64,000 bases of DNA from Candidatus Campbellbacteria bacterium (GTDB taxonomy: Bacteria; Patescibacteriota; Minisyncoccia; Phycocordibacterales; JABAAK01): the NCBI GenBank assembly GCA_028817035.1, contig JAPPQH010000015.1, forward strand, positions 1,895-65,894, given 5' to 3'. This document shows, in pieces, positions 2,278 through 16,380 of the stretch (its first letter is position 1; the number at the start of each line of letters is the position of its first letter). Both the position numbers and the translations under genes were made by a program. The notes beneath the pieces are model-generated. The model saw only the letters and a list, made by a program, of their open reading frames with translations. It had not been told where the DNA came from and ran no database searches.

Positions 2278-2416
2278 AAGTGAGGTTAAATATTAAAAAA
2301 CAAGTTTTTTAATATTTACACCGAGCGCCGCGAATATATCCCCAAGATATACTCGCAAGTGAGGCGAAGTCATCACCTCTTTTCTATAATATCAAAAACA
2401 CAAAATAAATAAAACA

Positions 2417-2456
2417 CCCAAAAACAAACCCCCAAGGCGCACCTGCGCCTTGGGGG
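2417..2456 (-). terminator. Intrinsic-terminator-like hairpin, copy B of the conserved family (cccccaaggcg..cgccttggggg), downstream of the minus-strand lipoprotein gene
   Basis: Same flanks as copy A (cacccaaaaacaaaccccc). Stem retained through paired a>g / t>c changes. Confidence 0.45.
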
Positions 2457-2498
2457 ATGTCGTCTCTGACCCACAAGTCCCCTTGGTTTGTTTAACCG

Positions 2499-2894
2499 TT
2501 AAGAAGGAACAAATACATCCATGTGGGTCTTAAATATGCCCTGACCACAGCTTGCCTCCTGTACCACACCGCTTTCTCCCTCCCTGGGCTTTCTTTCACC
2601 AATGGAGCGAACAGTGAGTGACCTTGGGTCTGCCCCTGTCGCAGACAAAATAACCTGGTAAAGCCCGCTAAGGCTGTGGTTCTTTGTCTCTCTGTATGCC
2701 TTAACGACCCTATACTCATCACCCTCTGCTTGATCTGGTATAATCTCACAGTTTTCGGGTTCAATGGGCTTGGAATCGTTTCTTGCACCGGGAGCAATCA
2801 TCTCCCCCAATGACATTCTGGCATCATGAAGGGCTGAGCAACCAGACAACAAGACGACGAAAAGAAAAAGAGCAAAAGTATGCAAAGTGCGCAT
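2499..2894 (-). CDS. putative secreted lipoprotein (hypothetical). Its GC content is higher than the surrounding sequence
   Basis: N-terminus MRTLHTFALFLFVVLLSGCSA is a signal peptide with a lipobox (LSGC). ATG at 2894 chosen over the upstream alternative start. Confidence 0.5.
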   Translation of the reverse strand: MRTLHTFALFLFVVLLSGCSALHDARMSLGEMIAPGARNDSKPIEPENCEIIPDQAEGDEYRVVKAYRETKNHSLSGLYQVILSATGADPRSLTVRSIGERKPREGESGVVQEASCGQGIFKTHMDVFVPS

Positions 2895-2995
2895 AATACA
2901 CCCCACTGTTTTCTTTACCGCACAGCCAATCTGCACAGCTAATATTAAAAGTTAGCATATAGTATAAAATTTGTCAAACACATTCTTTAGGCAAC

Positions 2996-3021
2996 AAAAA
3001 AACCACGCCTACGCGTGGTTT
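2996..3021 (-). terminator. Minus-strand intrinsic terminator (stem aaaccacgc / gcgtggttt, 4-nt loop, U7 tail). Unit 1 of a tandem family
   Basis: Perfect 9-bp stem. On the minus strand it is followed by ttttttt. Near-identical copy at 3212-3237. Confidence 0.5.
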
Positions 3022-3211
3022 CAAAATAAAAATATAGAGGTGGAGAAGAAAGGTCGCAGAGCATGTGCTCCGTACCCAAGGAGGAGGCACGACCCACCTC
3101 TCCACAATAGAGAGAAAACTCGTAGAATACCAACACGACTTCTCCCCCATTCAAAGGAATAACCCTTCAAACATTAAAATTGTATAGTACACAAAAATAT
3201 CCGTCAACAAC

Positions 3212-3237
3212 AAAAAAACCACGCCTATGCGTGGTTT
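3212..3237 (-). terminator. Minus-strand intrinsic terminator, copy 2 (aaaccacgcctatgcgtggttt + U-run)
   Basis: Differs from copy 1 by one loop base. Flanked by a similar ggtggag...ctccacc long-range complementarity. Confidence 0.5.
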
Positions 3238-3472
3238 CAAAATAAATGGTGGAGGGAGAGGAGCTATGTCACCGCATGGCGAACCATGCGTAATGCCGTA
3301 CACAACCCATCCCCTCCACGCACCGCTAACGAAACGACATGGATAACTCCTGCAGAAGGAGGACCACATTGCTTCATTTATTATGATATACCCTGCTAAA
3401 ATATCTGTCAATATCCAGATTCTCTCAAGGTCAGATTTATAATCAATCACTCTATCCCCCACTTTTAGTATT

Positions 3473-3546
3473 AAAAAAAGGGATTGCAATTATCAGCACC
3501 ATGCCTTCATTGGTAGATGAGGTCTAAAACCAACAACCGCAATCCC
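3473..3546 (-). other. Long imperfect hairpin (gggattgc...gcaatccc) followed on the minus strand by a T7 run. Possible third minus-strand terminator or the 3' end of a small RNA
   Basis: 8-bp closing stem read directly. A-run 3473-3479 on the plus strand is a U-run on the minus strand. Confidence 0.3.
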
Positions 3547-4082
3547 TTGGCTTTAGTGTAGGACTCCCGATTGCAATAAAAGATTGTACCTACGAGCCAA
3601 TAATAACATTACACCAATTATCTCTTTTTGTCCACTTCTCTATTTACTACTTATTCTCCTATCTAAATTAGTTTTGTATAAAAATTTAGAGGGCCCTGGA
3701 GACTGACGGGATTTCTCCCATCAAATCTCCAAGACCCAAGGGGGTTATGCAAACCGTTGATCGCGTGGCCACGCTACTCCAGCTTCCCCTGGAGCTTTAG
3801 GGCAGCTAGCCATTTGACTAACTGTGGTTTCAAACCAACGGTCTGCGAGGTCGGTCAGTACTAACCGAACCCTAATATATATGGTATACCAAGTCGCAAG
3901 ATTTGTCAACCCCCAGGGCTCGCGAAATCCAACTCATAAATTCGTTGCGGTCAGACTCACATCCCACAACCTATTCCGCTCCCCTGCTCACCCATCTCTT
4001 CCGCCCCATAAAATATAGGGCTATATGTCCGTGTACATACGTATGTACACGAACCTCCCCAAAATGCCTTATTTTGTGTAAA

Positions 4083-4323
4083 AAATGTTTCACGTGAAAC
4101 ATGTATGTACACATACACCCCCCAAAAGTGTGGAAAAGATGTTTCACGTGAAACATGTATGTGTACATACCCCCTAAATTTCCTTATTTTTTGGTGATGG
4201 GATGTTTCACGTGAAACATGTCTGTGTACATACCTCTCAAAAGCTGTGGAAAAGATGTTTCACGTGAAACATGTCTGTGTACATACCTCTCAAAAACTGT
4301 GGAAAAGATGTTTCACGTGAAAC
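4083..4323. repeat. Tandem array (4 full units of 52-65 bp plus 1 partial). Each unit begins with the perfect 18-bp palindrome ATGTTTCACGTGAAACAT followed by GT(A/C)TGTGTACATAC. Three inter-palindrome segments carry TGTGGAAAA, which is one mismatch from a DnaA box. It is not a CRISPR array
   Basis: Palindromes at 4085, 4138, 4202, 4254 and 4306. The inter-palindrome segments resemble each other (aaaagctgtggaaaag / aaaaactgtggaaaag), so they are not unique spacers. Confidence 0.9.
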
Positions 4324-4370
4324 ATTGACTGTTGATAAATGGTGTGTTGTTAGTGCAAAATATATGTGAT

Positions 4371-4774: not shown

Positions 4775-4847
4775 CGGGGAATGGTGTAACGGCTAACATT
4801 CTCGCTTTGGGAGCGAGCGACTCCGGGTTCGAATCCCGGTTCCCCGA
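4775..4847 (+). tRNA. tRNA-Pro (anticodon TGG)
   Basis: Acceptor CGGGGAA/TTCCCCG, anticodon stem CTCGC/GCGAG with loop TTTGGGA, T-arm CCGGG-TTCGAAT-CCCGG. Confidence 0.85.
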
Positions 4848-4892
4848 CATTAAATTATTACTTAATAGGGAAGAAGGCAGGAACTTTTTATT
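4832..4892. repeat. 61-bp direct repeat copy 1. It includes the last 16 nt of tRNA-Pro (att-like)
   Basis: aatcccggttccccgacattaaattattacttaatagggaagaaggcaggaactttttatt is identical at 4996-5056. Confidence 0.85.
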
Positions 4893-4995: not shown

Positions 4996-5056
4996 AATCC
5001 CGGTTCCCCGACATTAAATTATTACTTAATAGGGAAGAAGGCAGGAACTTTTTATT
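4996..5056. repeat. 61-bp direct repeat copy 2 (duplicated tRNA-Pro 3' end plus flank)
   Basis: Exact copy of 4832-4892, 103 bp downstream of copy 1. Confidence 0.85.
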
Positions 5057-5095: not shown

Positions 5096-5977
5096 ATGTC
5101 AAATGAACACTCAAAAAAAGTCCCACCTTTTGCTGACTTTTTTAATCCAATAATAAAAGCACTTAAAGAATTAGGAGGTAGTGCTTTAAGAAATGAAATT
5201 GAAAATAAGGTTATTGAAATAATGGGTATTACTGAAAAGCAGGTTAGTTATACATACAATAATAATGATAAATCTATAGTGCTTGATAGAATAGGCTGGG
5301 CACTATTTTATTTAAAGAAAGGCAAAATACTGAAGAGTGGCGGTCGTTCAATTTGGGAATTAGTCAAAAAAGACCAAAAAGAGATAGATGATGTAAAAGA
5401 GTTTATCAAACAGATTAATAAAGAGAGTAGAGAAAAAAAGAAATATCTTGAAGAAGAAAGTATTGAAATAACTCCACAAACAATTGAAGAAGAAAACTTT
5501 GATGAAATTCTCTTGAAAAAATTAAAAGAACTCACCCCTCTGGCCTTTGAAAAATTTTGTAAAAAATTACTTGAAAGAACTGGAGTCACAAATGTTGAAG
5601 AAACATCCTATTCAAATGATCGTGGTATAGATGGGACTGGTGTATTAAAAATACAAGGTTTGGTCAGTTTGCGTATAGCATATCAGTCAAAAAGATATAA
5701 CGAAGTCACTGTTGCTTCTAAAACAATTAGAGATTTCCGTGGGTCTCTTCCTTCTAATGTTGATAAAGGTATAGTTATTACCACTGGAAAATTTACTTCG
5801 GCAGCAAGGAAAGAAGCAATTAGCTCAGAAAAATCAAAAATTATTGATTTAATTGATGGCGAGGAATTGGTAAATATGATGAAAGAATTTAAAATGGGAG
5901 TTGAAACTGAAGACATCAAATCCATAATAAATATTGATGATGAATACTTCAAGCAATTTGAAGAGGGCAAAAAATAA
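5096..5977 (+). CDS. mrr: Mrr-family type IV restriction endonuclease (Mrr_N winged helix plus Mrr_cat PD-(D/E)xK domain)
   Basis: N-terminal Mrr_N-like region (GWALFYLKKGKIL). C-terminal catalytic core GIDGTGVL...QSKRY...GIVITTGKFTSAARKEA...IDLIDGEEL. Confidence 0.8.
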   Translation: MSNEHSKKVPPFADFFNPIIKALKELGGSALRNEIENKVIEIMGITEKQVSYTYNNNDKSIVLDRIGWALFYLKKGKILKSGGRSIWELVKKDQKEIDDVKEFIKQINKESREKKKYLEEESIEITPQTIEEENFDEILLKKLKELTPLAFEKFCKKLLERTGVTNVEETSYSNDRGIDGTGVLKIQGLVSLRIAYQSKRYNEVTVASKTIRDFRGSLPSNVDKGIVITTGKFTSAARKEAISSEKSKIIDLIDGEELVNMMKEFKMGVETEDIKSIINIDDEYFKQFEEGKK

Positions 5978-6005: not shown

Positions 6006-6875
6006 CTAATCAAAAGTATACTCAAGATACTCGTAAATATCTCTTTGATTCATATCGTAAAAAGTAATTCCGCTTCTATTTAATTCTTTTGCGAGTCGGA
6101 CGCCAACAAAACGCCAGTGCCACGGCTCATATTGGTAATACGGATTGTCTTTTGGATAGGAGAGTGTAAAGCCATATTTATGAGCGTTTTTTGTAAGCCA
6201 TCTGTATTGCTCTGTGTCTGCAAAAGCAATAGTAAGTAGCGGACCAGTTTTGCCGACAACATCAACCGTTGTTCCAAGCTGATGCTCTGACAAGCCAGGG
6301 TCTGCGACCGCCGGACTACCCGTTGCAGTTTTTATCCTCTTTTGATGGTCAAAAGATCTATATGCAGAGATAACAACTATATCAACACCATCATCCTCTG
6401 CATCATCAAGCATGTCTCTCAGATAATCAAGAACTTCAGATCTTATCCTTGCTTTTGTCACACTTCCGTGTAGATATTTTTTAGGAATGCTCACCAATGT
6501 GGCTGGGATGTAGTGCTCGTTCAAAAAGTATTCTCTGGAGTATTTATCCAAAATTTCCTTATCTGTGCTTTGTATTTTCGCAACTGACTCAACCTTTTTG
6601 GTGAATTTATTAACTGCTCTTTGTTGTTTATCAAAATCATCCTCAACCTCCTCAATTCCTTCGCTCAGCTTCTTTATATTGCTCTCGGTGAATCTTACAC
6701 TGCTTGATATAACCTTTTCATTCTCCTCAACGCTTTCTTGGATTTCTGCGAGTGTCTGCTGTATCTCTCCAACCTTCTGATTTTGTTTTGTTATGAAATA
6801 TCCTCCAAATACATACCCACCAGCGATGAGTATTACCAAAAAGCCATAACTGAAAAAATAACCTTGCTTCTTCAT
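6006..6875 (-). CDS. Membrane-anchored D-Ala-D-Ala carboxypeptidase-like peptidase (M15B / VanY family)
   Basis: N-terminal TM helix, coiled-coil region, then SAYRSFDHQ...SEHQLGTTVDV...YGFTLSYP...EPWHWRF, which are VanY zinc-peptidase signatures. Confidence 0.75.
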   Translation of the reverse strand: MKKQGYFFSYGFLVILIAGGYVFGGYFITKQNQKVGEIQQTLAEIQESVEENEKVISSSVRFTESNIKKLSEGIEEVEDDFDKQQRAVNKFTKKVESVAKIQSTDKEILDKYSREYFLNEHYIPATLVSIPKKYLHGSVTKARIRSEVLDYLRDMLDDAEDDGVDIVVISAYRSFDHQKRIKTATGSPAVADPGLSEHQLGTTVDVVGKTGPLLTIAFADTEQYRWLTKNAHKYGFTLSYPKDNPYYQYEPWHWRFVGVRLAKELNRSGITFYDMNQRDIYEYLEYTFD

Positions 6876-6941: not shown

Positions 6942-7012
6942 GCGGGTGTAGTTTAGTGGTAGAATATCTGCCTTCCAAGCAGAGGACGGGAGTTCGATTC
7001 TCCCCACCCGCA
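6942..7012 (+). tRNA. tRNA-Gly (anticodon TCC)
   Basis: Acceptor GCGGGTG/CACCCGC, anticodon loop CTTCCAA, T-arm GGGAG-TTCGATT-CTCCC. Confidence 0.85.
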
Positions 7013-7129
7013 CAGAGATAAAAGAGGGGAGTGGAGTGGCTGTTAAATTCTGATGTCCTTCACTTTTCAAACAAACCCACCAGCGTTTATTTTTGGTTTA
7101 GAAATGAAATAATGTGCTAAAATATAGTA

Positions 7130-9523
7130 ATGGAAAAACCTAAATTTAGAGGAGCAGATAGGAGGGGAACATCTATTTTAGAATCATCCCGAGAAAAAGA
7201 AATTTTGAAAAACTTTTCTCCAGAGGAAGCTAAGATTATAAAAGATAGAAAAAGTGTATTGTCAGCCTTGGGGTATTTCATAGGAAAAAATTTCTCTATG
7301 CCGATTGTTTTAGGATTGCCAAGTGAATCAAATCCGAGTGGTTGGCATTGGGGTAAGGCGAATGGAGAAAGTTATATACAAATAAACGCGAAAGATTTAC
7401 TGGAGAAACCCATGGATTATTTGCGTTATCTTATTTCTCACGAAGGTGGGCATGAGCGAGTTTCCAGAGTAGGATTTATACCTCCTGAAGAATGGAAACA
7501 GCCTGGTTTTGCTCTTATGATGAACTCCATTGAAGATCCCAGAATGAACAACTTTGTCGCAGAGGCATATCCTCCAATTCGAGGATTGATGCATAAAGTT
7601 TATAAAGAAGAGTTTGGATCTGAAAAGAAGGGTGAGGAGCTTGCAAAGCAAACTTTAGGTTTTCAACCACTACATGCCCAAGCTTCTAGTGAATATATAA
7701 AACAATGGATGAGGCAAGAAAAAGGGCGGGACTTTAAGATAGACGGGGGTTTGCCAAAAGAAGTGAAAGATGTTGTCAGAAAAACTCTATCATCAGCTGC
7801 TCGTTCATGGAGGCTTTTTCCAACCAAAGATATGGCTGATGGAAAAGAATATGATGAGCTGGGATCAACGGGCGAAGAGTCCATCGTCCAACACGCCCGT
7901 GCATCCTATGAAGTAAATAAAAATGAAATTTGGCCAGAATTCAGAAAATTAATTGCTCAAGATATTGAAGATCAAAAAATACAGGAAACCATACAAGATA
8001 TGAAAAATCAAAAAGGGCATGGGCAAGAACAAGCAGAAGAGCAAGAACAACAGCAAGGACAGGGAGGTGGACAAGGACAACAGCAGGAGCAAGAACAACA
8101 GCAAGGACAGGGAGGTGGACAAGGACAACAGCAGGAGCAAGAACAACAGCAAGGACAGGGAGGTGGACAAGGACAACAGCAGGAGCAAGAACAACAGCAA
8201 GGACAGGGAGGAGAAGGACAACAGCAGGAGCAGGGTGGTGCGTGCGCTGGGGGGCAATCACCAAGTATTCCCCAAAAATTAAAAGACAATCTTTCTTCTG
8301 AAGAACAAAGAGATTTAGAAAATGCCATCAATAACTCTCTTGGGCAGTCTGGGGAGGAGGGGCAGGGTGAAAGTAAAAATATCACACCAGTTCCCCTTGA
8401 CTCATTGTCAGAAGAATTAAAACAAAAAATAAGAGAATACATTGAGTCATTGCCCGAAGGCGAAAGAAGAGAGATTGAAGAAAGGGCAAGACAAGCCATA
8501 AAGGAATTTAATGATGCTTTAAATAAAGAGCTGGAGGGTAAGTTAACCAAAAATCCAGAAGAGATAGAGGCTGAACAAAAAGAACAGCAAGCACAAGCAC
8601 AAGAAACCCAAGAACAAGCAGAAGAGCAAGAACAACAGCAGGGACAGGGAGGAGTACAAGGACAACAGCAGGGGCAAGGACAGGAACAGCAAGAACAGCA
8701 AGAGCAAGTGCAAATATATGATGACACCGAAGGCGAACCATCCGAAAACAATGCTGCTAACCAAGAACCAGAAAAACACACTACCAGAAGGTGGAGAGAA
8801 CATTTTCGCCAAGATTTTCATGAGGATATGAATGCATATAGAGAATATCGCCAAAATTTATTAGCACTTATTAATAAAACAAAAAATGATTTTAAGCGCA
8901 TATTGATACCACAAAAGAGTACTTGGCAAGAGGGGCATAAGGTAGGAGGTAGAATCAATATCGGTCGACGCATTCAAGAAAAAGCAAAGGGTATTTCGGT
9001 AGTGGAAAGCAAGGCGTGGCAAAGAAGAGAACATCCAAAAAAAAATAGATATGCAATCTCTCTGCTGGTTGATTTGTCAGGCTCTATGTGGGGAAGAAGT
9101 ATCGAAGAAACCTTTAAATCAGTTATTGTGCTTGTTAATGTCTTGAACAGCTTGGGAATTAATACAGAAGTGCTTGGTTTTAATGATGAATTGAGTGAAT
9201 ATCAAAATTTTGGACAGCCAATGTCAGAAGAGGTAAGAGAAAAAATAAGCGGAATGATTCAAGCAGCTGACGGAGGAACTAATGTTTATCGTGCAACAGA
9301 TATTGCTTTGGAACGGCTCTCAAAACAAAGAGAAGAACAAAAGATGTTGATAACTCTCAGCGACGTTGAATTATCTGAACTACAGGATCTTGTAGAAGAA
9401 AAAGAGAAAACGCTTAAAAACACAAATATTACCCACATAGATATTGGTACGGTTGATGGCAAGACCGTTGGGGAAATTATAGAAAACATAAAAAAATTGA
9501 TTGAGAAAGAAAAGACAACATAA
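7130..9523 (+). CDS. Multidomain protein with three parts. N-terminal putative zincin-like metallopeptidase domain (HEGGHE = HExxH). Central Q/G/E-rich low-complexity linker with perfect tandem repeats. C-terminal von Willebrand A domain with a DxSGS MIDAS motif. Resembles the DUF2201_N + vWA architecture that pairs with MoxR-like ATPases
   Basis: LISHEGGHERV; (EQEQQQGQGGGQGQQQ)x3.7; vWA region LLVDLSGSMWG...GGTNVYRATDIA...LITLSDVE. Confidence 0.7.
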   Translation: MEKPKFRGADRRGTSILESSREKEILKNFSPEEAKIIKDRKSVLSALGYFIGKNFSMPIVLGLPSESNPSGWHWGKANGESYIQINAKDLLEKPMDYLRYLISHEGGHERVSRVGFIPPEEWKQPGFALMMNSIEDPRMNNFVAEAYPPIRGLMHKVYKEEFGSEKKGEELAKQTLGFQPLHAQASSEYIKQWMRQEKGRDFKIDGGLPKEVKDVVRKTLSSAARSWRLFPTKDMADGKEYDELGSTGEESIVQHARASYEVNKNEIWPEFRKLIAQDIEDQKIQETIQDMKNQKGHGQEQAEEQEQQQGQGGGQGQQQEQEQQQGQGGGQGQQQEQEQQQGQGGGQGQQQEQEQQQGQGGEGQQQEQGGACAGGQSPSIPQKLKDNLSSEEQRDLENAINNSLGQSGEEGQGESKNITPVPLDSLSEELKQKIREYIESLPEGERREIEERARQAIKEFNDALNKELEGKLTKNPEEIEAEQKEQQAQAQETQEQAEEQEQQQGQGGVQGQQQGQGQEQQEQQEQVQIYDDTEGEPSENNAANQEPEKHTTRRWREHFRQDFHEDMNAYREYRQNLLALINKTKNDFKRILIPQKSTWQEGHKVGGRINIGRRIQEKAKGISVVESKAWQRREHPKKNRYAISLLVDLSGSMWGRSIEETFKSVIVLVNVLNSLGINTEVLGFNDELSEYQNFGQPMSEEVREKISGMIQAADGGTNVYRATDIALERLSKQREEQKMLITLSDVELSELQDLVEEKEKTLKNTNITHIDIGTVDGKTVGEIIENIKKLIEKEKTT
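8042..8230 (+). repeat. Perfect 48-bp tandem repeat (about 3.7 copies) inside the vWA-protein gene. It encodes the 16-aa unit EQEQQQGQGGGQGQQQ. A diverged copy lies at about 8600-8700
   Basis: caagaacaacagcaaggacagggaggtggacaaggacaacagcaggag is repeated head-to-tail without mismatches. Confidence 0.9.
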
Positions 9524-9545
9524 GTATGATATTATTAATATATCT

Positions 9546-9968
9546 ATGGAAACCTTAGACACAGAAAAACTTCAGACCTTTATTTCTGCTATTCCATTAG
9601 TATCAAGAGAAGTTGGGTTGATTATCGCAGAAAACATGAAGGAGATGGATGGGTATTCTAATATTTTGGAAATGAATGGCATGACCAAATTGTCATCTTT
9701 TTTGGAATACAAAAATGTTAATAATGGCTATTATATTGTTGTTAACGAAGACAATTTCAAACAAACATACGACTTTGTGTGTCAGTACCCATCAACGATA
9801 ATTTCTTTGTTTGATCCTAAAACCGCAGAAACTATCGTAATACATCCCAATTACACACATCCAGTAATAGTTCTTATTGAAAAAGATGACTTGAACACAG
9901 TGCTGAAAAATTTTGATTTGTTTGGTCGAGTGGGTCTGGTTTATAGACCTAAGAACTTTTTGCAATAA
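9546..9968 (+). CDS. hypothetical protein (about 140 aa) between the vWA and AAA_5 genes. Possible third component of the module
   Basis: ORF tightly packed between 9523 and 9971. No recognisable motif. Confidence 0.4.
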   Translation: METLDTEKLQTFISAIPLVSREVGLIIAENMKEMDGYSNILEMNGMTKLSSFLEYKNVNNGYYIVVNEDNFKQTYDFVCQYPSTIISLFDPKTAETIVIHPNYTHPVIVLIEKDDLNTVLKNFDLFGRVGLVYRPKNFLQ

Positions 9969-9970
9969 TT

Positions 9971-12190
9971 ATGAAAATTATTAGGTCACAAGAAAAATTG
10001 GCTAAGGCAAGAAATGAAGTATCGGAAGCATCAACGCCAACAAAAAATCCGACATTGGGAAACTTGGATGGATTTAAAGAAGTGAGAGCAAGGTTAAGAG
10101 GTACCCCTGTAGAAGAAATGCTCACAAGCGTCTCTTACAGTGGTGTAAAGTTAGAAAAAGCTAAAGACCAAACAGGCGTTTGGGTCCCAAGGCGAGAAGA
10201 GTTTAAATTTTATGTTAATAGCAATCATTCTCTAAGATTACAAAAAGATATTGCTACAGCTTGGAGGTTAAGGCAGTCTATGCTTATTGAAGCAGGGACA
10301 TCTTATGGAAAAACTACAACTATTGAAAAAATGTGTGCCGAACTTGGGTATGAATATCACTATGTAAATCTCCATGAACAAATAGATGTAGAAAATTTCA
10401 TGGGTCGTTATATCCCCAACATAAATCGTAAAACAGAAAATGATCCAGAATATGTGTTTAAGTATGGACCTGTTTCAAGGGGTTTGATACAGGAAGAAGG
10501 CAAGGTGAAAGTGATAGTGCTTGACGAAATAAACACCGTAGAAGGTGGGGTTTTAAAAAGATTAAATGAAGTGCTTAATGCTGTTGAACGAAGCGGAACA
10601 GTAACTCTTACTGAAGATTCCTCAGAACAAATCCATGTCGACCGAGAAAAAACGATAATTATTGGCACAATGAATCCCAGTGGTGAGGACTATCATAGCA
10701 CAAAGCCTCTTTCCAAAGAGCTCATTAACCGTTTTTTATATAAGAAACTTGAAAAAATGACGGAAGAAGACATACATTCTATTATCATGACAATAAACGG
10801 CTTTTCGCATCACAACAACAGAGAAGAGGAACTTGCGATGGAAGCATATAAAGAAATTCCTGGTATAAAAGAAATGATTGAAAAATATGCAGAATTCCAT
10901 ATTGCTGTCCAAAAACTCTTGGAAAAAGGAGAATTGGCTACAGATCAAGATCAAAAAATTGTTTTTGACACTCATCGCGAACCTGAACGAATCAAAGAGC
11001 ATATAGCAGAATTCTATACAGGAGATATTAATGAAACAATGCAAGATGCATTGGACTTTACTTACCTGGGCAGATTATCTTCTAAAGAAGACAAAGAAAA
11101 AGTGAAAGAGTTGGCAAAGGTTGTCCGAGTAGAGATCAAGCCCAAAATATCTCAACGCCAAGGTCTTGAGAAAGCAGAAGTAGAGGGCAGGGATGCTGCA
11201 GAGTTTTTGGGTAAGTTCATTAATGTTCTTGATAATAATCCTAATCTAATAGATTCAATACATTGGAATTGGCATATTACCAACGAAGGTCATGTGGACA
11301 TGAAGGTTGGGGTATCCGATCTGAAAGAACTTGGTATAAATATAGATATTGATGCAATAGAAGGGTCAGACCAACCAATCTCATCATCCGTCAAGGAAGG
11401 TATGGGCATCAAAAACCTAATAAAGGAATTGGAAGGTAAGAATGTTCTCTCTGTAAGAACTGGAGATAATTGGAGGTTAAAAATCCTCCCAAAAGAATAT
11501 GGGGAACAAGAGGACAAAATAGGGCAAGAAATACTAAAAAAAGTAGGAGGCAGAGATCCGCAGATTTTGAATAAAATGTTTTCCAATCGAGAGCTTAAAA
11601 AGAATTTTGGTAAACAACATGATAGAGAAACTATTAAATGGATTTTTGGAAAAAGAGGGTTTATAGGGGTTCATGCTTTGGGCTTGGCTAAGTATGTGGA
11701 TAAAAACTATATTGATATGGCAACATCATATGATATAGGAGCAGAACAATACAGATCACAAGGTGTAGACCCCATGCTGAGGGTGATAGGAGACAGAAAG
11801 GTTGCTCTTTTAAATAATAAAAATATTTTTCAAATAAAAATCCTTCCAGAAAGTATATTTGATGAAATGCTTGGCCAAGGTTCTGGAAAGTTTCTGAAAA
11901 AGGTTGGTAAGATTTTCCCAAAAGATACTTTAGAAAAGTTTTCGTGGACGATTACCAACAAGGGTTTTGTGGATATGAAATGTAGTATAAAAACTCTGAA
12001 ATCTATGGGTGGAAGTGTTGATAAAGAAGTAAGTTACTTGCACAACCCAGAAAATGGAGAACCGTATGAGGAGCACTTTGGAGAGATACGCTCAACGGGT
12101 GAGGGTATAGGACCTCTGGGATCTGACTTATTGAATAAAAAAGTTGTCTCTTTAAATAGTAATGGTAACTGGGTATTAAAAATCCTTTAG
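9971..12190 (+). CDS. AAA_5 / MoxR-like AAA+ ATPase (N-terminal about 240 aa). The C-terminal about 500-aa extension contains an internal duplication of a module of roughly 110 aa
   Basis: Walker A AGTSYGKTT, Walker B VIVLDEIN, sensor IIIGTMNP. Repeats WHITNEGHVDMKVGVSDLKELG / WTITNKGFVDMKCSIKTLKSMG and LSVRTGDNWRLKILP / VSLNSNGNWVLKIL. Confidence 0.75.
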   Translation: MKIIRSQEKLAKARNEVSEASTPTKNPTLGNLDGFKEVRARLRGTPVEEMLTSVSYSGVKLEKAKDQTGVWVPRREEFKFYVNSNHSLRLQKDIATAWRLRQSMLIEAGTSYGKTTTIEKMCAELGYEYHYVNLHEQIDVENFMGRYIPNINRKTENDPEYVFKYGPVSRGLIQEEGKVKVIVLDEINTVEGGVLKRLNEVLNAVERSGTVTLTEDSSEQIHVDREKTIIIGTMNPSGEDYHSTKPLSKELINRFLYKKLEKMTEEDIHSIIMTINGFSHHNNREEELAMEAYKEIPGIKEMIEKYAEFHIAVQKLLEKGELATDQDQKIVFDTHREPERIKEHIAEFYTGDINETMQDALDFTYLGRLSSKEDKEKVKELAKVVRVEIKPKISQRQGLEKAEVEGRDAAEFLGKFINVLDNNPNLIDSIHWNWHITNEGHVDMKVGVSDLKELGINIDIDAIEGSDQPISSSVKEGMGIKNLIKELEGKNVLSVRTGDNWRLKILPKEYGEQEDKIGQEILKKVGGRDPQILNKMFSNRELKKNFGKQHDRETIKWIFGKRGFIGVHALGLAKYVDKNYIDMATSYDIGAEQYRSQGVDPMLRVIGDRKVALLNNKNIFQIKILPESIFDEMLGQGSGKFLKKVGKIFPKDTLEKFSWTITNKGFVDMKCSIKTLKSMGGSVDKEVSYLHNPENGEPYEEHFGEIRSTGEGIGPLGSDLLNKKVVSLNSNGNWVLKIL

Positions 12191-12202
12191 CAAAATAAAA
12201 AA

Positions 12203-12231
12203 TAGTCCCTCAAGAGAAGGACTATTTTTTA
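12203..12231. terminator. Bidirectional intrinsic terminator (tagtcc-N-ggacta flanked by A-run and T-run) between the convergent AAA_5 and hup genes
   Basis: Hairpin with aaaaaa upstream and tttttt downstream. Confidence 0.55.
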
Positions 12232-12246
12232 TTGAAAAAACAGGGT

Positions 12247-14514: not shown

Positions 14515-15033
14515 CTATTTTGACTTTTCGTACATCTCTCTCGCCTCCTCAAATGCTTTTTTCGCTTCCTCTGCGCCTTCATATCCTTTAATCTCTACTT
14601 TTACATTTTGCAGACCTTTGTATGTCTCAAAGAAGTGTGCGACTTCTTTTAGTGTGTGAGAGTTTATGTCGTCTATGTCCTTGACTTTGTCCCATCTTGG
14701 ATCATGTGTTGGAACTGCTATTACCTTATCGTCTGAGTCGCCGTCGTCTATCATTTTTAAGAGTCCGACAAAACGAGCCCTAACCACGATGCCTGGAGAG
14801 AGGGGAAATGTGGTAAGAACTACGCAGTCAAGCGGGTCGTCATCATACCAAAGGGTCTGTGGGATAAACCCATAATCTACGGGATAGTCCTGTGCTGTGT
14901 GAAGTGCTCTGTCAAGCGCGATGAGCCCCGTTTTTTTGTCTATCTCGTATTTGTTTCTTGAATGGCGCGGTATCTCAATTATTACTGTTGCCTTTTCTTT
15001 GTTTCCTGGGTCTATTTCGTGTATAAGATTCAT
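14515..15033 (-). CDS. ppa: Inorganic pyrophosphatase (family I)
   Basis: EIPRHSRNKYEID...DGDPLDCVVL...DDKVIAV motifs. Confidence 0.85.
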   Translation of the reverse strand: MNLIHEIDPGNKEKATVIIEIPRHSRNKYEIDKKTGLIALDRALHTAQDYPVDYGFIPQTLWYDDDPLDCVVLTTFPLSPGIVVRARFVGLLKMIDDGDSDDKVIAVPTHDPRWDKVKDIDDINSHTLKEVAHFFETYKGLQNVKVEIKGYEGAEEAKKAFEEAREMYEKSK

Positions 15034-15057
15034 AATCGTTTTTTAGTATATCACAAA

Positions 15058-16380
15058 TTAATCTGACTTTTTTGCACTTGAGCTTTCACCTTCACTTTCT
15101 TCTTTGCTTTCAGTTTCACCGACTTCATTTTCACTGACTTCATTTTCTTTTGTCACCTCGCTGTCTTTCGCTTCGCTCACTTCGTCATTGTCCGCTTCTT
15201 TCTCTTCAGCATCAGCAGAAGCACCAACACCTTCACCAACACCTTCACCCTCACCACCTGTTTCTGCATCATCTGTCGCGCCTTCAACTTTCACCGACTC
15301 AATGTCTATGCTCCATCCTGTGAGTTTCGCGGCAAGACGAACATTTTGTCCGCCATGTCCTATTGAAAGTGATATTTGGTCTTCTGGAACAAAAACTTTG
15401 GCGCTGTTGTTCTCTTCATCCAAATCTATGGATGTGATTCTTGCTGGGGATAATGCTTCCTCTATGAAGGTGGCTGGGTTTGCTGACCATTCTATTACAT
15501 CTATTCTTTCTCCATGTAGTTCGCCTGTTACCATTGAAACTCTTACACCGTGTTGACCTATGAGTGCGCCTACAGGGTCAATCCTGTCGTTATCACTTGT
15601 TACTGAAATTTTTGTCCTTGAACCTGCTTCACGGGCTATGGACTTTATGGTGACATTTCCGTTTGCAACCTCTGGGGACTCAAGCTCAAACAGTTTTACC
15701 ACAAACTCTGGTGCGCTTCTTGAAAGGGTGACAAAATTTCCTCTGCTTGCCTCTGTGTTTACATTAAGAACATACGCTTTTATGATTTCCCCTTGCTTGA
15801 ATCTTTCGTTGGGTATCTGTTCGTTGTAGGGAAGTATCGCCATTGTTCTTCCAAGATCTATAAGTATATTTCTTCTTTCAAATCGTCTGACCGATCCAGA
15901 AACAATAGTCCCTTCTTTTTCTGAGAATTCGCTAATCACAGTTTCTTTTTCTGCTTCGCGTAGTTTTTGTGTGATTATTTGTTTTGCGTTCTGTGTCGCG
16001 ATTCTTCCAAAAGAAGAATTCTTTTTGATGGGAAAACTAAGCGCCTCGCCAACTTCTATGCTACCTTTTATTTTTTTTGCATCCTCAAGCATTATGTGTC
16101 TTTCGGGATTGAAATGAACTCGCGTGTCTTCCTCGCTCTCCACCTTTTCTCCCTCGGGTAAAATTCCCGACTCATCTATCACAATTTTTTTCTGCTCAAA
16201 AGAGATGTCCCCCGTGTCTGTGTTGAAGGTTGCTTCAATTATTTGGTCGGGCTTGCCGTATTCTTTTTTGTAAGCACTCTCAAGAGCCCGCTCAATAGCG
16301 TCTATAAGGTGTGCGCGTGGAATACCACGCTCTTCTTCTATTTGGTCTATTGCGACTTTTAATGTTTTTAAATCAAGCAT
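15058..16380 (-). CDS. nusA: Transcription termination/antitermination factor NusA with acidic C-terminal tail
   Basis: N-terminal, S1 and KH regions recognisable (LKVAIDQIEEERGIPRAHLIDAIERAL...). ATG at 16380. Confidence 0.85.
   Translation of the reverse strand: MLDLKTLKVAIDQIEEERGIPRAHLIDAIERALESAYKKEYGKPDQIIEATFNTDTGDISFEQKKIVIDESGILPEGEKVESEEDTRVHFNPERHIMLEDAKKIKGSIEVGEALSFPIKKNSSFGRIATQNAKQIITQKLREAEKETVISEFSEKEGTIVSGSVRRFERRNILIDLGRTMAILPYNEQIPNERFKQGEIIKAYVLNVNTEASRGNFVTLSRSAPEFVVKLFELESPEVANGNVTIKSIAREAGSRTKISVTSDNDRIDPVGALIGQHGVRVSMVTGELHGERIDVIEWSANPATFIEEALSPARITSIDLDEENNSAKVFVPEDQISLSIGHGGQNVRLAAKLTGWSIDIESVKVEGATDDAETGGEGEGVGEGVGASADAEEKEADNDEVSEAKDSEVTKENEVSENEVGETESKEESEGESSSAKKSD

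Follow-up and report, generated by a model that had tools for sequence, protein, structure and literature searches.

A predicted metallopeptidase-vWA, small-protein and AAA_5 ATPase cassette of candidate phyla radiation bacteria and a copy free of a diversity-generating retroelement

Conflict systems built on MoxR-vWA proteins have been described as ternary systems of the VMAP, iSTAND, FtsH and beta-propeller types (Kaur 2020, PMC7159879). In candidate phyla radiation (CPR) bacteria, ATPases are targets of diversity-generating retroelements (DGRs). According to Doré 2024 (PMC10907252), citing Paul 2017, no CPR DGR target architecture is commoner than the fusion of an AAA-ATPase with a CLec domain, and the idea of the ATPase as a transducer has been proposed (PMC10907252); the CPR "UVR4/Midasin" targets of Wu 2018 (PMC5758913) match the AAA domain of Midasin. 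Here we analyze three adjacent genes in a 64-kb stretch of a Candidatus Campbellbacteria genome (the whole of which we call the window) that encode a predicted zincin-like metallopeptidase-vWA protein, a small protein and an AAA_5 ATPase. We hold, with a probability of about 0.9, that this trio is an operon and belongs to a cassette that is conserved in many lineages of CPR/Patescibacteria and consists of a zincin-like metallopeptidase-linker-vWA protein, a ~136-aa protein and a Midasin/CobS-like AAA_5 ATPase. It is well supported that the window has the cassette in a DGR-free minority form, with three copies of a rare domain in place of a hypervariable tail. We infer that the ATPase family of the cassette is the published CPR AAA-ATPase DGR target class. 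The initial annotation of this locus had placed the ATPase tail and the third gene outside the described MoxR-vWA pairs, as if they were new, a view that gives way to the reports of AAA-ATPase fusions as the commonest CPR DGR target (PMC10907252; PMC5758913). The vWA and small-protein partners in CPR go unmentioned in the accessible published descriptions, which do not include Paul 2017 itself.

The layout of the trio is shared in part with several known systems. As in AAA_5/MoxR-vWA pairs, the AAA core motifs are present and the adjacent vWA gene carries a metal ion-dependent adhesion site (MIDAS). The MoxR-vWA ternary systems, like the cassette, join a third protein to a vWA protein and an AAA+ ATPase of the MoxR clade, with a peptidase as the likely effector; many members are DGR-linked, and the apparent logic is that of a sensor, an ATPase transducer and an effector. 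However, the DGR-diversified FGS/CLec domain of the ternary systems is on the vWA protein, whereas the variable domain of the CPR cassette is on the ATPase. Their third component is VMAP or iSTAND, where the cassette has a 136-aa protein with no match to either, and their peptidase is a trypsin or caspase, where the cassette has a zincin fused to the vWA protein. The ternary systems occur in multicellular bacteria and the cassette in CPR. In the pairs of a metallopeptidase-vWA protein and a MoxR ATPase (Pfam DUF2201_N/DUF2201 architecture; jumbo phages of group 2.2, PMC7824862), an N-terminal HExxH peptidase-like domain is likewise fused to a vWA domain beside an AAA_5/MoxR ATPase; what sets the cassette apart from these pairs is its long linker of low complexity, its additional small gene and the putative receptor domain that its ATPase carries. 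Midasin (Rea1) and CobS/CobT show the same succession of AAA module, acidic or low-complexity linker and MIDAS, and the cassette is split over two polypeptides as in CobS/CobT. Midasin has six AAA modules, whereas the cassette has one, plus a peptidase domain, and unlike Midasin and CobS/CobT the cassette lies outside a ribosome-biogenesis or chelatase context.

A conserved three-gene cassette and its DGR-free form

An open reading frame (ORF) listing of the window confirmed the three genes on the plus strand. The initial annotation had described an HExxH-vWA protein, a 140-aa protein and an AAA_5 ATPase, and this layout is borne out by the ORFs, the Pfam VWA and AAA_5 matches and the motifs. 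The genes and their parts are as follows, with E-values for the C-terminal units taken from a hidden Markov model (HMM) of the unit:

7130..9523, plus strand: gene 1, zincin-like domain, Q/E/G linker and vWA (MIDAS) domain, 797 aa (ORF; Pfam VWA/CobT_C)
7130..8011, plus strand: N-terminal HExxH domain, aa 1-294, with HEGGH at 7439-7453 and IEDPR at 7529-7543
8012..8929, plus strand: Q/E/G-rich linker of low complexity; 48-nt tandem DNA repeats occupy 8020-8259, and copies related to them 8557-8730
8930..9523, plus strand: vWA domain, with the MIDAS motif DLSGS at 9071-9085 and the conserved LSD at 9353-9367
9546..9968, plus strand: gene 2, 140 aa, no match in the libraries searched, directly upstream of the ATPase gene
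9971..12190, plus strand: gene 3, AAA_5 ATPase, 739 aa (ORF; Pfam AAA_5)
9971..11170, plus strand: conserved ATPase module, aa 1-400, comprising a family-specific N-terminal region, the AAA_5 core and a helical region
11183..11491, plus strand: C-terminal unit 1, aa 405-507 (E 1.3e-33)
11549..11848, plus strand: C-terminal unit 2, the degenerate middle unit, aa 527-626 (domain E 1.2e-6; outside the training set of the profile)
11873..12187, plus strand: C-terminal unit 3, aa 635-739 (E 1.5e-24)

The window ATPase is 100% identical to a protein annotated from a metagenome-assembled genome of Candidatus Campbellbacteria on a 141-kb contig, and homologues of it abound in CPR/Patescibacteria. The ATPase is 41-51% identical over aa ~45-400 to proteins that carry variable regions (VRs) at the 3' ends of their genes, and the part shared with these relatives is confined to the first ~400 residues. 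All of the first three neighborhoods (3/3) contained a ~700-aa CobT_C/vWA protein, the small protein and the ATPase, followed by bAvd and an RVT_1 reverse transcriptase (RT). In these neighborhoods the last ~120 nt of the ATPase gene recurs in the spacer before Avd. Since all differences between the two copies fall at adenines of the spacer copy, we called them a DGR variable region and its template region (TR). A scan of one genome per species yielded 79 further loci from many CPR lineages, and synteny was scored with profiles made from the window proteins at the 69 loci with enough upstream sequence. The vWA protein, with both its N-terminal and vWA domains, and the small protein were present together in 68 of the 69, and the genes were contiguous in 57. 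A TR partner was found for 41 of 64 complete ATPase genes, and its median distance from the stop codon of the ATPase was 334 nt. Of the 672 mismatches, 645 (96%) fell at TR adenines. Avd and/or RT genes were present in 36 of the 49 loci with at least 3 kb of downstream sequence.

The loci vary around this common core. At one of them (L013, 9531-14673) the small protein and ATPase genes are tandemly duplicated as a pair behind a single vWA gene, and both ATPase tails match one TR (14945-15061), with 13 of 14 and 15 of 15 mismatches at adenines. In many DGR-bearing cassettes the ATPase gene is followed, ahead of Avd, by an additional and shorter target gene, whose 3' end forms a second VR that shares the TR of the first (L001, 10467-11450; also L022, L025, L043, L049, L051, L054, L059 and L076). 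The genes flanking the cassette differ by locus and include recombinases, HEPN, a prophage capsid gene and cell-wall/division genes. In a Zambryskibacteria genome (L001/L002, 2443-4860), two AAA genes of the ChlI/Mg_chelatase type (YifB/ComM-like) lie directly upstream of the trio; downstream of the DGR come a recombinase gene and one that is Phage_rep_O-like. In two genomes (L005/L092, 12200-17950), the cassette and its DGR precede a block that encodes a major capsid protein of the SU10 type, and the cassette lies at the edge of a prophage-like region.

The window trio has the same homologous ATPase module, upstream partners and gene order as the CPR DGR-target ATPases. Most of those ATPases have a VR, a TR and Avd/RT, whereas the window copy is without them and instead bears three units of a different domain. 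Searches of the 64-kb window by tblastn with two RTs and two Avds gave no RT or Avd (nothing below E 0.2). The window tail has no variable-type ending, typical examples of which are ...LGVSLSRRL, ...GFRVAVVLGT and ...LGVVSLR, and no second copy within the window. Where the flanks of unit-bearing ATPases without a variable-type tail could be read (the window, L019, P0094 and P0092), the vWA and small-protein genes were kept and Avd/RT were absent.

Domains of the three proteins

Within the conserved module of the ATPase, Pfam AAA_5 matches at aa 113-255 (E 2.5e-13), with a Walker A motif, GTSYGKTT, at aa 109-116 (10295-10318) and a Walker B motif, VLDE, at aa 183-186 (10517-10528). An alignment with 28 homologues shows that the window ATPase keeps all 42 family-invariant columns, Walker A and B included. 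The closest PDB sequences for the core are the AAA domains of Midasin (E 1.3e-30). On a comparison that was not systematic, the family N-terminal consensus SVSYLGVxLEKA...FVPxREQY looks unlike the MoxR WxhapG and PsWRxa motifs.

The remainder of the ATPase, aa 405-739, consists of three tandem ~100-aa units. The initial annotation had seen two repeats of ~110 aa in a tail of ~500 aa; these become the three units, and aa 1-400 belong to the family-conserved module. At the DNA level the tail contains a repeat, 11437-11487 and 12136-12186. An exhaustive HMMER search found only eight proteins with the unit among 1.84 billion representatives. The HMMER hits, pooled with those of a word-indexed search, include as carriers of the same ATPase family P0002 (one unit), P0094 (four) and P0007 (one unit, then a variable-type tail). 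P0092, an AAA_5 protein of greater divergence, is among them too, as are three short proteins. The genome scan added L019, in which a single unit follows a long stretch of helical repeats. Because the unit-bearing ATPases are scattered on a rough neighbor-joining (NJ) tree, which we used only for this scatter and for the branch length of the window protein, the unit appears to have moved among family members. On the same tree the nearest relatives of the window ATPase include VR-bearing proteins. The AlphaFold2 (AF2) model of unit 1, built from an alignment of 13 units, is confident (predicted local distance difference test, pLDDT, 89.5; predicted template modeling score, pTM, 0.81) and predicts a helix, a β-hairpin and a helix followed by four strands and a helix, an α/β arrangement. 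The model gave no significant match in the structure libraries searched, and comparison of the units with PADLOC, NCBIfam and PHROGs returned nothing specific. As a separate feature of the family, some ATPases (L019, 9866-13345; also P0005, P0013 and P0048) carry long arrays of ~30-aa helical repeats between the ATPase module and the C-terminal domain. The repeat has the consensus GLAGxDSxxAWxxR and is present in more than 20 copies in L019.

The N-terminal domain of the vWA protein contains HEGGH at aa 104-108. In alignments of 37-77 homologues, this motif and E135, which lies in IEDPRxNNF, are invariant or nearly so, and E135 is the probable third zinc ligand. The AF2 model of the domain is of moderate confidence (pLDDT 67) and has a helix, a three-stranded sheet and the HExxH helix, which is the layout of a zincin. 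As expected of a gluzincin-like fold, the model places HExxH on the active-site helix after a small β-sheet, with the third ligand downstream. The domain thus models as a minigluzincin/M48-like core and is a predicted zinc peptidase. The N-domain found no match in Pfam, and a profile search against PDB sequences gave chance-level matches only. The initial annotation had named a DUF2201_N metallopeptidase-vWA architecture as a known companion of such ATPases, but membership of the window domain in that family is not supported: DUF2201_N/DUF2201 (PF13203/PF09967) gave no Pfam match to the window protein at E<=0.1 and none among 37 family N-domains at E<=1. A Pfam scan of 37 vWA N-domains produced no consistent match, with VMAP-M5 appearing once, marginally (E 0.15), in one of the 37.

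In the linker that follows (aa ~295-600), Q accounts for 24% of the residues, E for 17% and G for 12%, and its layout is reminiscent of the acidic linkers in Midasin, CobT and BchD. It is encoded in part by 48-nt tandem DNA repeats that are up to 93% identical. A second assembly with the same ATPase (L090, same strain) ends inside the vWA gene, which suggests that the repeats break assemblies, and their copy number may be variable. In the C-terminal part of the protein, Pfam VWA matches at aa 643-776 (E 2.9e-7) and CobT_C scores 23.1 bits against a cut-off of 21. The MIDAS motif DLSGS (aa 648-652) is conserved in at least 80% of 78 homologues, and the distal LSD is conserved too. The closest PDB sequences for this domain are the Midasin MIDAS (E 1.6e-4) and CobT.

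Members of the small-protein family are about 135-136 aa long and start 15-25 nt past the vWA stop, so the ATG at 9546 (140 aa) is the likely start in the window, not the TTG at 9501. About 80 related loci encode a homologue, and its gene always directly precedes that of the ATPase. The small protein stays beside the ATPase at the three loci where the vWA gene lies elsewhere (L055, L070 and L083). Because of this, and because it is duplicated together with the ATPase at L013, it is most likely a partner of the ATPase. The window protein had no match in Pfam, PDB, PHROG or PADLOC and nothing specific in NCBIfam. A Pfam scan of 42 small proteins likewise gave no consistent match, a profile search against PDB sequences gave chance-level matches only, and an hhalign comparison with the ATPase C-terminal unit showed no relation. 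Hydrophobic segments of all three trio proteins stay below ~1.6, the level that we set for a transmembrane (TM) helix; the VanY control, with its putative N-terminal anchor, reaches 1.81.

Genomic surroundings of the trio

The features that surround the trio in the window are listed below:

4775-4848: tRNA-Pro
5096-5977: Mrr (Pfam)
6006-6875, minus strand: VanY (Pfam)
6942-7013: tRNA-Gly(TCC)
12194..12233, no strand: inverted repeat in the gap that separates the ATPase gene from the convergent HU gene, with 18-nt arms that are 94% complementary and a 4-nt loop

The initial annotation had set the trio in a tRNA-flanked island, between tRNA-Pro and tRNA-Gly, with Mrr and VanY as neighbors. The neighbors are confirmed by Pfam matches, and Mrr also matches mREase_IV in PADLOC. 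The placement is wrong: only Mrr and VanY lie between the two tRNA genes, and the trio begins 117 nt past tRNA-Gly. With those coordinates, and with no bracketing repeats and no composition shift, the island argument fails. The duplicated 3' end of tRNA-Pro on which it drew is real, an exact duplication of 61/61 nt (4832-4892 = 4996-5056) comprising the last 17 nt of the tRNA and 44 nt beyond. However, the copies are 164 nt apart, upstream of Mrr, and bracket no gene, neither Mrr nor the trio. For these reasons we rejected the duplication as the att site of an island; it may be an integration or excision scar or a local duplication. Horizontal transfer was also considered on the basis of a GC or skew anomaly and rejected, as composition is unremarkable and skew tracks gene orientation; there is no shift in GC content that marks the trio region off from the rest of the window.

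On its far side, the trio adjoins convergent genes for HU, ClpP and trigger factor. The gap from the ATPase stop to the HU gene is just 56 nt, and the inverted repeat listed above is likely a bidirectional terminator. Elsewhere in the window (4075-4325), just upstream of a YraN/UPF0102 gene, is a 53-nt tandem array of ~4.5-5 copies. Every unit has the perfect palindrome TTTCACGTGAAA, and three units also contain the DnaA-box-like TGTGGAAAA. The ~1.7 kb ahead of the array (2300-4070) has no Pfam-matching ORF and a slightly higher GC content. This region could be regulatory or replication-related.

Proposed mechanism and alternative explanations

By analogy with MoxR, CbbQ-CbbO and Midasin, as well as with the schemes of sensor, transducer and effector put forward in Kaur 2020 and Doré 2024, we propose a receptor-ATPase-vWA-peptidase mechanism. 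The ATPase would form a ring, as MoxR/CobS/Midasin-type AAA+ proteins do, and display its C-terminal domains as cytoplasmic ligand receptors. Ligand binding would be coupled to ATP-driven remodeling of the vWA protein, which the ATPase would contact through the MIDAS and the long flexible linker, and this remodeling would expose the N-terminal Zn-peptidase domain, or position it, for cleavage of a target. As for the small protein, it would probably serve as an adaptor, a lid or a first substrate of the ATPase. In DGR-bearing relatives the receptor specificity would be continually redrawn, and in the window copy it would be germline-fixed. The role would be recognition of a foreign or partner-cell protein, in phage defense or host sensing, rather than maturation of a housekeeping enzyme. 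We give this mechanism, taken together with a conflict or partner-sensing role, about an even chance. A bolder version, in which an "antigen receptor" machine of the cytoplasm, found CPR-wide, has the trio as its chassis, with receptor domains on a ring ATPase that are either DGR-redrawn or, in the window, hard-wired as tandem copies of a fold unmatched in the libraries searched, and with ligand capture that triggers a vWA-tethered zinc protease, is a tentative suggestion that we regard as somewhat doubtful.

A conflict role of the trio is plausible. Hypermutation of the ATPase tail in relatives argues for recognition of a variable ligand, which fits conflict or interaction better than a fixed chaperone. 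The defense or conflict role put forward in the initial annotation thus retains one line of evidence, the tail hypermutation in 36 of 49 relatives with enough flank, and loses another, the island. The DGR link is the better of the two arguments; the initial annotation had missed it, understandably, as this copy has no DGR. Several points weigh against it. PADLOC-DB 2.0 models matched none of the trio proteins, so a role in defense can only be inferred, and no effector other than the peptidase is evident in the cassette. The cassette often sits among core genes, as in the window and at locus L091, which is compatible with a cellular, non-defense role. On the NJ tree the branch of the window ATPase is long, so constraint on it may be relaxed, and Wu 2018 (PMC5758913) left the VRs of its CPR targets unclassified.

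The core-gene setting at these two loci would suit an assembly or remodeling chaperone, for example for pili or the structures with which CPR episymbionts attach to their hosts, in which the AAA/vWA pair acts with zincin processing, the C-terminal domain picks the client and there is no immune role. MoxR-vWA pairs of known function are chaperone-like (RavA/ViaA, CbbQ/CbbO, NorQ/NorD and the ATV tail; PMC7159879), the metallopeptidase-vWA/MoxR pairs of jumbo phages have been proposed to act in virion assembly (PMC7824862), and CPR DGRs have been proposed to diversify host-attachment functions (PMC8867640). We nevertheless judge this explanation unlikely. A fixed client is hard to square with a hypermutated client-binding site, no client gene is conserved and the flanks differ in every locus looked at; moreover, the trio proteins are without signal peptides or TM segments, so any surface role would be indirect. 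Another explanation takes the window copy to be a decaying relic left after loss of the DGR and the variable tail, as the absence of a DGR from the window, the long branch and the degenerate middle unit might suggest. However, the three ORFs are intact and tightly spaced, the 42 ATPase invariants and the peptidase and MIDAS motifs are intact, and an identical ATPase was recovered from a second sample. The DGR-free, unit-bearing architecture also recurs in independent lineages (L019; P0094, with four units; P0092), and we consider decay very improbable.

A housekeeping pair for metal chelation or metallo-enzyme maturation, in the style of CobS/CobT, BchI/BchD or NorQ/NorD, is effectively refuted. 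It could draw on the CobT_C score just over its cut-off, on PHROG matches to phage CobS/CobT-like families and on weak NCBIfam CobT matches, but for the NCBIfam CobT equivalog the score is 17 bits, where the cut-off is 759. CobN, BchH and nitric-oxide reductase (NOR) genes occur in none of the neighborhoods seen, and the peptidase domain and DGR-targeted tail are foreign to chelatases. More broadly, our neighborhood check found no cobalamin, NOR or other housekeeping maturation genes in related loci with annotated neighbors, in agreement with the initial annotation, which had denied such a context.

The DGR targets of CPR are numerous and functionally blank. The commonest class of them seems to belong to a three-gene machine of fixed composition, to which the receptor-ATPase-protease proposal gives a testable mechanism. 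Two elements of it are uncharacterized: the C-terminal unit, a confidently modeled domain for which no structural relative was found, and the small protein. DGR-free variants such as the window copy offer one defined candidate receptor sequence, far easier to use for expression, ligand fishing and crystallization than the hypermutating form. If the antigen-receptor proposal is true, the window copy would represent a hypermutating system for immunity or host sensing in a version whose receptor is germline-fixed, in cell-attached organisms.

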